Below, piece by piece: positions 170 to 40,554 of a DNA stretch of 64,000 nucleotides. The notes under the pieces were generated by a model. It searched no databases. It was not told the DNA's origin and saw nothing but the letters and a program-made list of their open reading frames with translations. The position numbers were made by a program, and so were the translations under genes. The stretch's first letter is position 1, and each line of letters opens with the position of its first letter. The DNA is from Octopus vulgaris (taxonomy: Eukaryota), in NCBI GenBank assembly GCA_951406725.2, contig OX597818.1:8866001-8930000 (forward strand), read 5' to 3'.

Positions 170-1165
170 ACGATAAAATTGTTAAAACTTTTATCAGTAG
201 CCAGCATATAAAAAAGATAGACGTGTTAAGGTGAAAACATAAATACAATTATAATTAATGGCATAGAAAAAATTCTTGCCTGCATGCTGAAATGAGTCAC
301 TAAATCGTCGAACCCCATTAAATATCATCACTATTATTTATTACACACGTGTCGAAAATCGAGTGAGCAAGCTAACGGAAATTCATAAAATGGTATCTCT
401 GCATCGGCCAATTTCTAGATTAACCCTAGAGGAAATAAATGAAATACTTATACATAGCCACAGAAAAGGAGATGCAAGGTCATGAATGCACATAAGTACC
501 CTGAATATATCCATATCAAATCACTCAGTAATCCTTGACATGTCTGTGGCCGGTCTAGAATAGCACATTAGTGGCTAGACTGTTCCGAATTGAATGGGAA
601 TTAATTAAATTATAATATAAAAGGATAAAATTGTTAGAAATTTTATCAGTAGCCAGCATATAAAAAGATAGACCTATTAAGGTGAAATCATAAATACAAT
701 CATAATTAAGGACATAGAAAAAAATGTTGCCTATATGCTGAAAGGGGAAGCTAAATCGTCGAACCACAATAAGCGGCATCAATATCATTATTACACACGT
801 GTCGAAAATCGAGGGAGCAAGCAAACGGAAATTCATAAAACTGAGTTATATCGTGATCGGCCAATTTCTGGATTAACCCAAAGGTTTTCTTTCGTCAGCA
901 GAGAATACTGAGAAAATAAACTAAATATTAATGCATACCCAGAGGAAAGCAGATGCATATAAGTACTCCAAATATATCCATATTGAAGTGCATAGCAAGC
1001 CTCGACACATGAGTAGCCGGTCAAGAATTTGTGTTCGCTTGCTTCCTCGATTGTCGACACGTGTGTAATAATAATAGTGAATATATCTAATGTGGTTCGA
1101 CGATTTAGCGTCTCCTTTCAGCATATAGGTAAGAATTTTCTTCTATGTTCTTAGTTATAATTGCA
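170..1165 (-). repeat. Diverged ~452-bp tandem repeat (about 2 units) plus a terminal inverted partial copy; decayed hammerhead-bearing retrozyme/pLTR-like element
   Basis: GATAAAATTGTTA...TTTTATCAGTAGCCAGCATATAAAAA starts at 172 and 624. 1028-1165 is the reverse complement of ~695-835. The minus strand at 904-849 reads TCTCTG-CTGACGA-...-GAAA-TTGGCCGA-TC. Flanked by (TA)n and (CA)n. Confidence 0.75.
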
Positions 1166-1940
1166 TACACACACATACACACACACACACACACAAATAT
1201 GTATATATATATATATATATATATATATATATATATATACATACACACATATATATATGTATGTATGTTTGTACGTATGTATGTATTATTGACCTGTATG
1301 CGTATATAAAACACATATATATTTGAAAATCGTATACTTGAAAATTTATCCGTTTGTATTTTTGAAAGCTAAATATCTGTATTAATTCATGTACTCGAGG
1401 TAAATATGTAAAATCAATTCCGTTATGAATAAATTTCCATTACGCAAACGGAAGGGTTCAGTAATGTGTGTCTTGCAGGCACAATATTACATATAAATTT
1501 GTCATATCTATTCTTTACTTAATTCGAATGAACACAAGTTTTACAAGCATATTTTGTCATATATGTGTACATATACATGCATATATACATATACATACAC
1601 ATACAGACGTACTTTTACACATATATACGCGTGCATATATATATATATATATATATATATATATATATATATATATATATATATATATATATATATATAT
1701 ATATATATACGCACATACGCACACGTAACTTTATATAAATATATACACAAACCTACATTTTAAACGTATGTAAATATCTTAATGCAGTTCGTATATTTGC
1801 ACATTTAAACTTGTGTGTCACTATGTAGTGAGATGATTTGCTCTTTTAAATAGATCCTGTTTTTCTGACGATATTTTTCGCTGTAGAGTGGTGCCTTCTT
1901 CTTCTTCTTCCCCTCCCCTTCCTCGTCCCCTCCTCCTCCT

Positions 1941-2086
1941 CATTCTTCTTCTTCTTCTTCTTCTTCTTATTATTATTATTATTTTTATTATTATTATTAT
2001 TATTATTATTATTATTATTATTATTAATATTATTATTATTATTATTAGTAGTAGTAGTAGTAGTAGTAGTAGTAGTAGTAGTAGTA
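1941..2086. repeat. Compound (TTC)n(TTA)n(TAG)n microsatellite, representative of dozens of simple repeats in the window (e.g. 3147-3332, 30471-30670, 35226-35400, 47148-47340, 56783-57160)
   Basis: Directly visible; explains the poly-I/N/Y/L/S ORFs in the track. Confidence 0.98.
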
Positions 2087-3834
2087 TGTTTATTATTCAT
2101 GCTTCCATGCAGATATTATATTCTGTTTCTCTACAGTGTAATGTTGAATTTTATATAATTATTGCCCATTTTTTATTTCTATATTTACATGAATATTTCT
2201 TCAACGTTTAAACTGTAACTACATGAAAATCCTAGAAATATGCTAATTTCATGTATAGAAGCAAAAAAACGCGTCGATTTTTGGGATAAAATTCTTTCAG
2301 GCTATGATATCAGTAAGAATAAATTAGTTAATGAATTGTCTGATCCTAGATTTCAGAAAATTCCTTATTTGGTAACTGAAAAATTTCCGGCTCTTCGTTT
2401 GAACCAAACATTTCACATGCCACAATGTATTATTAAATGGAAGTGTGGTAATCTGTAGAAACTGTTCTGTGGGATTTATTTCGAAATAATTTGTTAGGCT
2501 CCTGTATGCTATATTCGACGAGCATCTGCAACAATTTAGCTATTACGAACTGTATACTATACATACAACTATCGGCTACTCTTGTGGGTGAGTGATAAAT
2601 TATAACTACAATGCAACAAAGAATGTTTTGTTCGTTATAATACTCGCATCTAAGCCAGATGAATACGTATGAGTGTGTATGTGTGTATGTGCGTGTGTGT
2701 TTTTCTTTATGCATTTGCCATCTTTTATGTGTTTTCTTACCTAAAATCCTTTCTAAATTGAATATTACGAGATGTTATTCGTGTAGCTACGAACAAGCCG
2801 GCCCTGTAAAAGTTTTATGTTGATAAGTAATCAGCTAGAACTGAATTACATAGGGCCCAGAATTAAATTATACTTTGTAGCGCCATCTATGAGTCGAGAT
2901 ATTAAAATCTGGTGACATTTAGAGACATTTATTCTTCATTAGCATTTATTCTTTTATTGAAGCTGTAAAATTTCATTAAAAATATCTTGAACTACTACCA
3001 ACTGCTTCAAGATTCCTTTTGGAAATAGATGCATGGGCTTTTGTTGGTTTTATTTCATCTTGTTAACAAGAAGAAATTAAGCTAAAACTTCACTTGAAAA
3101 CTTAAAGATTATCTGAATTAACTTATCCGCTTTTATAATTCAATGTGTAGTAGTAGTAGTAGTAGTAGTAGTAGTAGTAGTAGTAGTAGTAGTAGTGGTG
3201 GTGGTGGTGGTAGTAGTAGTAGTAGTAGTAGTAGTAGTAGTAGTAGTAGTAGTAGTAGTAGTAGTAGTAGTAGCAGCAGCAACAGCAGCAGCAGCAGCAG
3301 TAGTAGTAGTAGTAGTAGCAGCAGTAGCAGTAGCATGAAGCTATGCCCCTGTCCTGAAAGAGAAAATTTTTTTGTAGTGAATATGCTTCAAAGCACAAAT
3401 TCCCATTTATAAAAAAAAAACAAAAAAACTTTTTCATTTGCTGAAGGTAATCGCACAGTCAGGCATAGAAAAACTACATTTCAAAGACGCCCGTTCAAGC
3501 AGGCATATGACCGACGATTGCTCAGCAATTTAAGTCCGACAGGTGATGGTATGAACAACAGGTTGTCGGGATAAGCAAAAATGCAGAAGTATGTTGTTAG
3601 TTTGTGTCCCACTGTCAGTAGGTTGTGCATAAGTAAGTCAGTAAATGTTTGTTTATCTGCCTTTTGGAAAAGTGTCAAATATAGCAGTGCAATGCCTGGG
3701 TGATGAAGTAGTCAATGAAAGTAAATGTTGAATCTGTCCACTATAAGGATTTCGTATATGTTGACATTGAATTCTTAATAAGTTTTTGAAAGACTATGTC
3801 CGACATAATATTAGTTACACACATTACATAAGGA

Positions 3835-4130
3835 TAAACAGTAATGACTCCCTTCGGTCATGAATGACCATGGGATTGCACCTAGAAACTTACTCTCTGA
3901 GGCAAGCTTATTTATGAAGACCAGCAGTCATGCATGCATAACAGCCTCCCCTCTCCACGCCACTGAAGGAAAGGAAAACGTAAATACAGCTTGGCACCAG
4001 TGACGTCGCACCTCAATTCTACAACTGAATGAACTGGGACAATGTATTATAAAGTGTTTCACTCAGAGAAACAAACTCACTACATCGTGATTGGGAGACC
4101 GGCGCTTTAACCATTGAGCCATGCGTCTTT
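3835..4130 (-). mobile_element. tRNA-derived SINE (family A)
   Basis: Shares CCTTCGGTCATGAATGACCATGGGATTGCACCTAGAAA...CAGCTTGGCACCAG...AACCATTGAGCCATGCG with copies at 6185 and 10795. tRNA-like head (TGGCTCAATGGTTA) lies at the right end on the minus strand. Confidence 0.75.
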
Positions 4131-39138: not shown

Positions 39139-39517
39139 TTACAGGGTAAAAGTTTTTCAATTTTCTCCTGGTTTACGGTATTAATGTTATTTTGCGGTTA
39201 AAGCTTTTGGCTGTTATTTCTAGTGGGTGAATGGCCTATTATGGCCGTTCCTTGATTGTGATGTTGAACGTAAAAATGGTTTATGACTATTTAATTTTTT
39301 CCTACTAGGCCGCTGGTGGCAAAAGAATTCTACAAAATTTTTTTGTCACCCTATATTGATTAATTATGAATTTTCTGGTTAGTTCCGTAACAGAATCGGT
39401 GGTTCATTTGCTGCCGATAAATTTGGCGCGAGTGCGACGATTTGAAAATTTTAGGTCAGATATTGCCGAGGCAGCAAGAGGAATGCCTCGTGAAAAATAT
39501 CTGTTCCGATTTGGCTA

Positions 39518-39622
39518 TTTCTTACTGATGAGTCTAAGGGCCTATGGTGGATTGGCTTGATTTAATTTAATCAGGTTGGTTTACCATTAAACGCTAGATG
39601 AAACGGTGCATCGTCTAAGAAA
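39518..39622 (+). ncRNA. Type I hammerhead ribozyme (484-bp family)
   Basis: Identical copy; predicted cleavage after 39615. Confidence 0.92.
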
Positions 39623-40002
39623 TTACAGGGTAAAAGTTTTTCAATTTTCTCCTGGTTTACGGTATTAATGTTATTTTGCGGTTAAAGCTTTTGGCTGTTA
39701 TTTCTAGTGGGTGAATGGCCTATTATGGCCGTTCCTTGATTGTGATGTTGAACGTAAAAATGGTTTATGACTATTTAATTTTTTCCTACTAGGCCGCTGG
39801 TGGCAAAAGAATTCTACAAAATTTTTTTTGTCACCCTATATTGATTAATTATGAATTTTCTGGTTAGTTCCGTAACAGAATCGGTGGTTCATTTGCTGCC
39901 GATAAATTTGGCGCGAGTGCGACGATTTGAAAATTTTAGGTCAGATATTGCCGAGGCAGCAAGAGGAATGCCTCGTGAAAAATATCTGTTCCGATTTGGC
40001 TA

Positions 40003-40107
40003 TTTCTTACTGATGAGTCTAAGGGCCTATGGTGGATTGGCTTGATTTAATTTAATCAGGTTGGTTTACCATTAAACGCTAGATGAAACGGTGCATCGTC
40101 TAAGAAA
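40003..40107 (+). ncRNA. Type I hammerhead ribozyme (484-bp family)
   Basis: Identical copy; predicted cleavage after 40100. Confidence 0.92.
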
Positions 40108-40554
40108 TTACAGGGTAAAAGTTTTTCAATTTTCTCCTGGTTTACGGTATTAATGTTATTTTGCGGTTAAAGCTTTTGGCTGTTATTTCTAGTGGGTGAA
40201 TGGCCTATTATGGCCGTTCCTTGATTGTGATGTTGAACGTAAAAATGGTTTATGACTATTTAATTTTTTCCTACTAGGCCGCTGGTGGCAAAAGAATTCT
40301 ACAAAATTTTTTTTGTCACCCTATATTGATTAATTATATATATATATATATATATTGTATATATATATATATATATATATATATATATATATATATATAT
40401 ATATATTCTCATAAACATGCATGCATATATACATACATACATACATACATATATATATATATATATATATATATATATATATATATATGTATACATACAT
40501 CTATATATATGCTATTATACATACACACACACAATATATATATATATATATATA

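Follow-up and report, generated by a model that had tools for sequence, protein, structure and literature searches.

Two-armed hammerhead ribozyme insertions in Octopus vulgaris diverge from a central junction and, with few exceptions, end at two fixed 3' sites

The stretch analysed here (the window) comprises 64 kb of the Octopus vulgaris genome, C5:8866001-8930000 of a 2.8-Gb assembly in 227 contigs, with a GC content of 34% and abundant microsatellites, and it carries a series of palindromic insertions built from hammerhead ribozyme repeats. Palindromes were located by self-comparison and hammerheads by a structural descriptor (exact type-I core, score of at least 7), which scored 10 times in the window and not once in any of five shuffles; Rfam reported hammerheads in the window only below threshold (22.1 bits against a gathering score of 34), and its miRNA matches there were dismissed as palindromes and microsatellites. 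All six palindromes listed in a preliminary description of this DNA were recovered, as inverted matches of 243-384/1025-1166 (84% identity), 12735-12806/12917-12988 (79%), 17080-17230 (90%), 20993-21095/21441-21543 (94%), 36652-37001/37532-37878 (97%) and 37937-38626/39055-39744 (100%), with two of the bounds to be corrected: the right arm of the locus at 17083 ends at 17298 and not at 17227, and the left arm of that at 21009 ends near 20966. Families are labelled by their window loci (A, 37937; B, 36463; D, 17083; E, 21009; F, 170; G, 12730; H, 8985; and a 347-nt family). The most informative feature, missed in the preliminary description, is that the arms end at two different fixed sites of the repeat unit, giving short-type and long-type 3' ends; in family A, unit positions are counted from the ribozyme cut.

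170..1024, minus strand: family F left arm, about 1.9 units of about 452 nt, near-intact core at 898 to 855; the 3' end at 170 is long-type and runs into (TA)n
1025..1166, plus strand: family F right arm; its 3' end is short-type and runs into (CA)n/(TA)n
8985..9114, minus strand: family H left arm, unlisted in the preliminary description, 364-nt unit, U3-A8 hammerhead in other copies, long-type end
9112..9276, plus strand: family H right arm, starting 11 nt past the ribozyme cut site, short-type end into (TA)n
12735..12890, minus strand: family G left arm, 5' half of a hammerhead core at 12828, old and degenerate
12917..12988, plus strand: family G right arm, 3' half of a hammerhead
17080..17156, minus strand: family D left arm, representing the 3' terminal module of a Hydra-type Penelope-like element (PLE), with an intact hammerhead at 17149 and a short-type end
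17154..17298, plus strand: family D right arm with an intact hammerhead at 17161; its 3' end is long-type and meets (TA)n
20966..21229, minus strand: family E left arm, U3-A8 hammerhead, long-type end
21230..21533, plus strand: family E right arm; 73 nt are duplicated at the junction, and the short-type end runs into (TA)n
22420..23151, minus strand: left arm of the 347-nt-unit family, also unlisted, degenerate hammerhead
23156..23907, plus strand: right arm of the 347-nt-unit family, sense taken from the hammerheads in L106 and L124
24001..25716, minus strand: 5'-truncated PLE reverse transcriptase (RT)-endonuclease frame with an Asn-rich insert, a separate insertion and an example of candidate helper machinery
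36463..37389, minus strand: family B left arm with units of 546 nt; the hammerheads at 36806 and 37352 are intact, and the long-type end (unit position 275) runs into the (TA)n at 36403-36462
37389..37876, plus strand: family B right arm with a hammerhead at 37725; its 3' end is atypical
37877..37936, no strand: (TA)30 tract common to the B and A insertions
37937..38626, minus strand: family A left arm, unit of 484 nt with a hammerhead at 38156; the 3' end is short-type (unit position 131)
38626..40337, plus strand: family A right arm of 3.5 units, with hammerheads at 39041, 39525 and 40010 and a long-type end (unit position 236) that runs into (TA)n
52178..52513, no strand: old palindrome; its left arm has a hammerhead core at 52281 on the minus strand, its right arm a degenerate one on the plus strand

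As had been claimed, the ribozyme sense lies on the minus strand in the left arm and on the plus strand in the right arm at all six loci, and the same polarity was found in three further palindromes, 8985-9276, 22420-23907 and, less securely, 52178-52513. The strand was set directly at three of the six loci, which carry intact type-I hammerheads (minus 17149/plus 17161; minus 36806 and 37352/plus 37725; minus 38156/plus 39041, 39525 and 40010), and via family copies at the three degenerate ones. Locus 170-1165 has a near-intact core on the minus strand at 898, with intact hammerheads in other family F copies; at 12730-12995 the 5' half of the core is on the minus strand at 12828 and the 3' half on the plus strand near 12968, and locus 21009-21526 carries the core variant U3-A8. 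A reading of the family E core as decayed was rejected, since the core occurs family-wide and matches the U3-A8 variant in the consulted sections of PMC4209133, which also describe paired hammerheads on opposite strands. The U3-A8 core is family-wide in both E and H (window 21009-21533; L297-L305); a U3-A8 script detected H and missed the E copies, whose stem II was judged by eye. Likewise, 22420-23907 had been considered as a convergent case beside the PLE frame, until the family hammerheads showed a divergent arrangement. Ten of the 12 outer ends run into (TA)n, (CA)n or (TG)n, consistent with the preliminary description, while at the 12730 locus neither end lies directly in a tract. The families are also unrelated, as had been stated, with no significant DNA similarity among the eight sequences (best E 0.12).

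No convergent case had been noticed in the window, and a wider census agrees: in 1.56 Mb, 125 loci with intact hammerheads comprised 53 divergent and no convergent ones, the remaining 72 being without an inverted hammerhead copy. The final classifier demands an inverted copy containing the hammerhead segment, so that short arms are missed; a first classifier was dropped because its 'convergent' labels came from tandem units and unrelated flanking repeats. Loci of families A, B and D in the census were picked by similarity search, and the 34 incidental loci of other families included 10 divergent and no convergent ones. In an unselected 750 kb, the descriptor found 14 intact hammerheads at 10 loci (none in shuffles), five of which have an inverted segment, upstream in all. 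Family A was mapped in most detail, at the 40 best-scoring of 914 candidate loci; 26 of these are two-armed, and all 26 are minus/plus.

The 3' ends of the family A arms lie either at 131 (short) or at 231-248 (long) from the ribozyme cut, and every classifiable two-armed locus has one of each (24 of 24; binomial p 1.2e-7). Two further two-armed loci could not be classified, one having an internal deletion and one lying at a contig end, and the 14 one-armed loci are split evenly into seven short and seven long. A (TA)4 occurs within 10 nt of 60 of the 63 family A 3' ends, against a background of 2-4%. Among family D opposite pairs, which were mostly selected for the long end, 24 of 25 are short plus long and one is unclassified. 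Pairs read from alignments are short plus long in five of five cases in family E and in 10 of 12 in family F, and three of five family H loci clearly follow the same pattern. The distance between the two sites is about 105 nt in A, 100 nt in B, 68 nt in D and F, 60 nt in H and 30 nt in E, and the short-plus-long pairs of A, D and B show the tail extension at one end that is described for PLE insertions. Literature searches returned no paper describing reciprocal start-site use, nor any report of two paired fixed 3' ends, of variants of one monomer in both arms or of uniform junction offsets.

The 5' ends of the arms are variable. In family A, the offsets between the 5' ends of the two arms are uniform around the unit (n=25, median 117 nt, Kolmogorov-Smirnov p 0.96), with three of 25 junctions near-symmetric (within 30 nt) against 3.2 expected. 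The preliminary description had suggested that junction microhomology be looked at, and the family A joints indeed show an overlap of 0-5 nt or a filler of up to 15 nt. The longer arm can be of either type (12 versus 10), three of the 25 loci not being nested. Some 5' ends are placed in a particular way, as 11 of 66 lie in the 31 nt past the ribozyme cut (enriched, p 0.003), in both arm types, and sense RNA is therefore the likely template.

Variants were compared at 37 family A loci, L033, L044 and L050 being left out for internal rearrangement: 39 are present in all units of a locus, 61 are singletons and one is partial. Seven, of which four belong to the copy of the window, were flagged as private to a locus and shared by all units of its two arms; one of the seven also occurs in one of the loci left out. 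The family E copy of the window similarly carries two core changes in both arms which differ from the usual family core. Since variants are present in all units or in a single one, each insertion derives from one monomer sequence, and later mutation was not homogenised. Going by the sequences, a monomer circle would account for this pattern most simply, and shared variants are also expected if identical molecules came from a single source locus. The variant pattern and the 5' ends near the cut would lend indirect support to a self-cleaved, circularised RNA. The partial variant belongs to L067 (C8:52918076-52921840), where it is found in two of seven units, one per arm. The arms of this locus stop 5 and 22 nt past the cut but are unequal in length by about five units, a pattern that two RTs could leave by halting at one point of a circle in different rounds. 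In family D, one base discordant between the arms was seen, probably owing to query selection and recurrent mutation, and a second marker is concordant.

Judged from its sequence context, family D makes up the 3' end of an autonomous Hydra-type PLE: its copies follow RT-endonuclease frames in a unit of about 3.4-3.5 kb, and a search gave 96 matches at 92-96% identity, many with open frames of 727 aa in which an RT motif YRDD and a C-terminal endonuclease-like (GIY-YIG-type) region were read by eye; Pfam gave no significant match on the PLE proteins. The translation of one copy, L320, contains RWK, DKT and CxCX5C, as well as CxxC and CxH near the C-terminus. The hammerhead is found downstream of the open reading frame (ORF), in tandem copies upstream as well, with TA flanks. 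A second Hydra-like family is represented by the frame at 24001-25716, relatives of which have open frames of 820-860 aa, and intact Hydra-type ORFs are abundant in the genome. The insert between the RT and the endonuclease of this frame is microsatellite-like, and similar inserts have been described in rotifer PLEs. By their structure, families A, B and H look like non-LTR (long terminal repeat) retrozymes, with tandem units of 484, 546 and 364 nt that have one type-I hammerhead each. No frame of at least 120 aa was found at A, B and H loci, and at the 40 family A loci the arms stop at the junction or run out into simple sequence, with no LTR; no separate search was made for a primer binding site or a polypurine tract. 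The 60 loci compared of the two Hydra-type families showed no homology to A, B or H save incidental flanking insertions. Family H is very young, with many copies being 100% identical, and offers a good test family; its junction at 8985-9276 recurs with different flanks in L296 (C15:41659909), so that either the palindrome moved as a unit or the junction recurred via a 3-nt microhomology.

Much of this architecture is known already, including the head-to-head copy, the (TA)n target and the one-sided tail of PLEs as well as tandem hammerhead repeats as non-LTR retrozymes. It is real and forms part of PLE biology, and so does not define a new element class. The relevant passages of PMC3846280 and PMC8557442 describe head-to-head, inverted 5'-truncated PLE copies, in line with the background given in the preliminary description; in the former, head-to-head is the commonest form of Adineta vaga Penelope and is explained by self-priming on an antisense template, while the latter gives an inverted 5'-truncated copy at the 5' end, a one-sided tail and a (TA)n bias with an undefined mechanism. 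The insertions studied here share partial tandems, the inverted 5' copy, the one-sided tail, (TA)n and canonical hammerheads with the endonuclease-positive PLEs of these passages. They differ in their tails, of about 30-105 nt compared with the 30-40 nt given there, in the one-short-one-long rule counted here, the tail being merely optional in those descriptions, and, for the A, B and H copies examined, in having no ORF, unlike autonomous PLEs. The Hydra clade is characterised in excerpts of PMC8557442 by RWK, DKT and CxCX5C motifs, (TA)n targets, hammerheads and a length generally below 3 kb, which the family D unit exceeds. Tandem hammerhead repeats are presented, in the portions available of PMC7229834 and of the preprint bioRxiv 10.64898/2026.07.22.740005, as retrozymes with a proposed circular RNA, mobilised by PLEs, and A, B and H resemble these animal non-LTR retrozymes, with AT-rich tandem units of 350-550 nt and one type-I hammerhead each. 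The words 'inverted' and 'microsatellite' do not occur in the main text of PMC7229834, and the available portions of the preprint do not describe two-armed insertions or fixed double 3' ends. A biochemical parallel is PAc Poseidon, whose PLE protein, a predicted dimer, cuts at AT-rich DNA and extends both strands in vitro, starting at two internal RNA sites that bound the tail, with ribozyme cleavage not required (PMC11167929). That study has no inverted-arm model, no pairing of sites within an insertion and no circular or non-autonomous template.

We consider it likely, from the arrangement of the sequences, that a PLE RT/endonuclease dimer cuts both strands of (TA)n and primes both DNA ends at two fixed sites of one RNA. 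This proposal builds on the observed divergent polarity, paired 3' ends, variable 5' ends, identical monomer variants and (TA)n flanks. A Hydra-type PLE protein would bind the ribozyme-sense RNA, one subunit priming at the short site and the other at the long one, and the intervening stretch would correspond to the PLE 'tail'. In the tandem non-coding families a monomeric circle would serve as template, each RT running several rounds, and the cDNA 3' ends would be joined via 0-5 nt microhomology or short filler to give the head-to-head junction; one very short cDNA would leave an apparently one-armed insertion. More tentatively, and with somewhat more doubt than belief, a single dimer performing rolling-circle reverse transcription of one circular ribozyme RNA from two fixed start sites at once, one for each end of a double-strand cut in (TA)n, could explain why all endonuclease-positive PLEs and animal retrozymes show tandem, inverted and tail features. 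Priming from both sides of a break in (TA)n with joining of the two cDNAs had been proposed in the preliminary description, whose reading is borne out in part: this is the best-supported model, favoured over fold-back by the genome-wide data. Its attribution to many small ribozyme RNAs does not hold for all six loci, the family at 17083 being the 3' end of an autonomous PLE. A single common mobilisation system is not borne out by the comparison; two Hydra-type families carry their own hammerheads, unrelated to A, B and H.

In the familiar twin priming of LINE-1 (long interspersed element 1), the two strands of the target likewise share a single RNA as template and their cDNAs become linked head-to-head; the internal position at which the second primer anneals varies there, and the arms do not overlap. 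Unlike in twin priming, both sites are fixed and close here, so that the arms form an inverted repeat.

An alternative, which we regard as unlikely, is fold-back self-priming, in which one strand doubles back and is copied, resolution of the other end by the endonuclease takes place at a fixed site, and the junctions are scattered afterwards by central deletions. Long perfect palindromes do lose their centres, and self-priming predicts both divergent polarity and identical variants in the two arms; near-perfect hairpin junctions are frequent in family D and also present in the family E copy of the window. Yet no more than three of the 25 family A junctions are near-symmetric despite copies 97-100% identical, either arm may be the longer one, not all loci are nested, one-armed loci are of both types in equal number, and in short-type and long-type arms alike the 5' ends cluster where the ribozyme cuts the RNA. 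Moreover, both tail boundaries are RT start sites in vitro (PMC11167929), which does not suit the self-priming proposed for PLE inverted repeats in the passages of PMC3846280. Strict pairing, the single-monomer signature and random junctions together favour two-site priming on one RNA over self-priming. Improbable, too, is two-sided priming on two RNA molecules or on a linear multimeric transcript, with gene conversion homogenising the units afterwards. Shared variants would arise as well if a single dominant source locus supplied identical molecules, some templates must have had or gained a free end at the cut site given the excess of 5' ends there, family D as a 3.4-3.5-kb autonomous element need not use a small circle, and the L067 variant is spread over one unit per arm. 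However, two RNAs should give same-type pairs about half the time, with 0 of 24 in family A, and gene conversion in a multimer should leave many partly spread variants, with one of 101 seen; nor can the single 5' end of a linear template account for the L067 arms, which both stop past the cut yet differ by about five units.

Very improbable is a library or assembly fold-back artefact, although the arms at 37937-40337 are 100% identical and that junction is spanned by none of the contigs listed. The arms are 79-97% identical at five of the six loci, the flanks are unmirrored, arm lengths are unequal, ends lie at reciprocal fixed sites and polarity is one-sided; the divergence of the arms, together with the unmirrored flanks and the reciprocal ends, excludes a library fold-back. 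Short-read contigs from a second organism also contain left-arm/right-arm joints at many positions (12 of the 15 displayed out of 93). Two family A insertions lie inside the internal microsatellite of a repeat resembling a short interspersed element, other copies of which carry the tract empty (114 and 106 empty-like alignments for the two sites, being alignments and not distinct copies). These empty paralogous sites indicate that the (TA)n tract predates the insertion at the two loci, and a target-site duplication is unreadable inside (TA)n.

Several points nevertheless weigh against two-site priming on one RNA. In the older family B, the 19 two-armed loci comprise eight short-plus-long pairs, three short-plus-short pairs and eight with an atypical end, so that eight of 11 classifiable pairs follow the rule; the short site of this family sits in a TA-like stretch, and later tract growth may have loosened its ends. 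Both 5' ends lie within 34 nt upstream of the core, a region favoured by the query, in 16 of 25 family D pairs, giving near-perfect hairpins that fold-back predicts too, and deletion of the palindrome centre after insertion could also randomise junction offsets. For PAc Poseidon, start sites are reported not to differ between the two DNA strands, pairing not being examined (PMC11167929), and no autonomous partner for A, B and H was found in the comparison with the two Hydra-type families.

If true, two-site priming would replace the published self-priming idea. The origin of the tandem, inverted and tail structures of PLEs is called unresolved in the pertinent passages of PMC8557442, and re-insertion of animal retrozymes is so far treated as a hypothesis in those of PMC7229834. 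Young high-copy families provide a genomic read-out that separates the models by paired starts, one monomer and random junctions; the pairing seen in the genome ties the two-site initiation of PMC11167929 to real insertions, and the non-coding tandem families and the autonomous Hydra-type element obey the same rule.

Insertions are nested in the (TA)n flanks of each other, as seen for B beside A (36463-40337) and likewise in L041, L072, L334 and L337, which may explain the high hammerhead density of the window (10 intact in 64 kb versus 14 in 750 kb elsewhere). A one-armed short tandem hammerhead family lies at 10336-10732 on the plus strand, with an intact core at 10624 and a decayed relative at 19451-19672. 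The repeat at 60212-61183 was excluded as a hammerhead palindrome, being a terminal-inverted-repeat element with no convincing hammerhead; it is of high copy number and has 155-nt tandem subterminal repeats. The stretches 13144-14544, 31070-34074, 40501-43295, 19746-20324 and 49630-50488 are what we take, from their translations, to be fragments of non-LTR retrotransposons and Tc1/mariner-type transposases.

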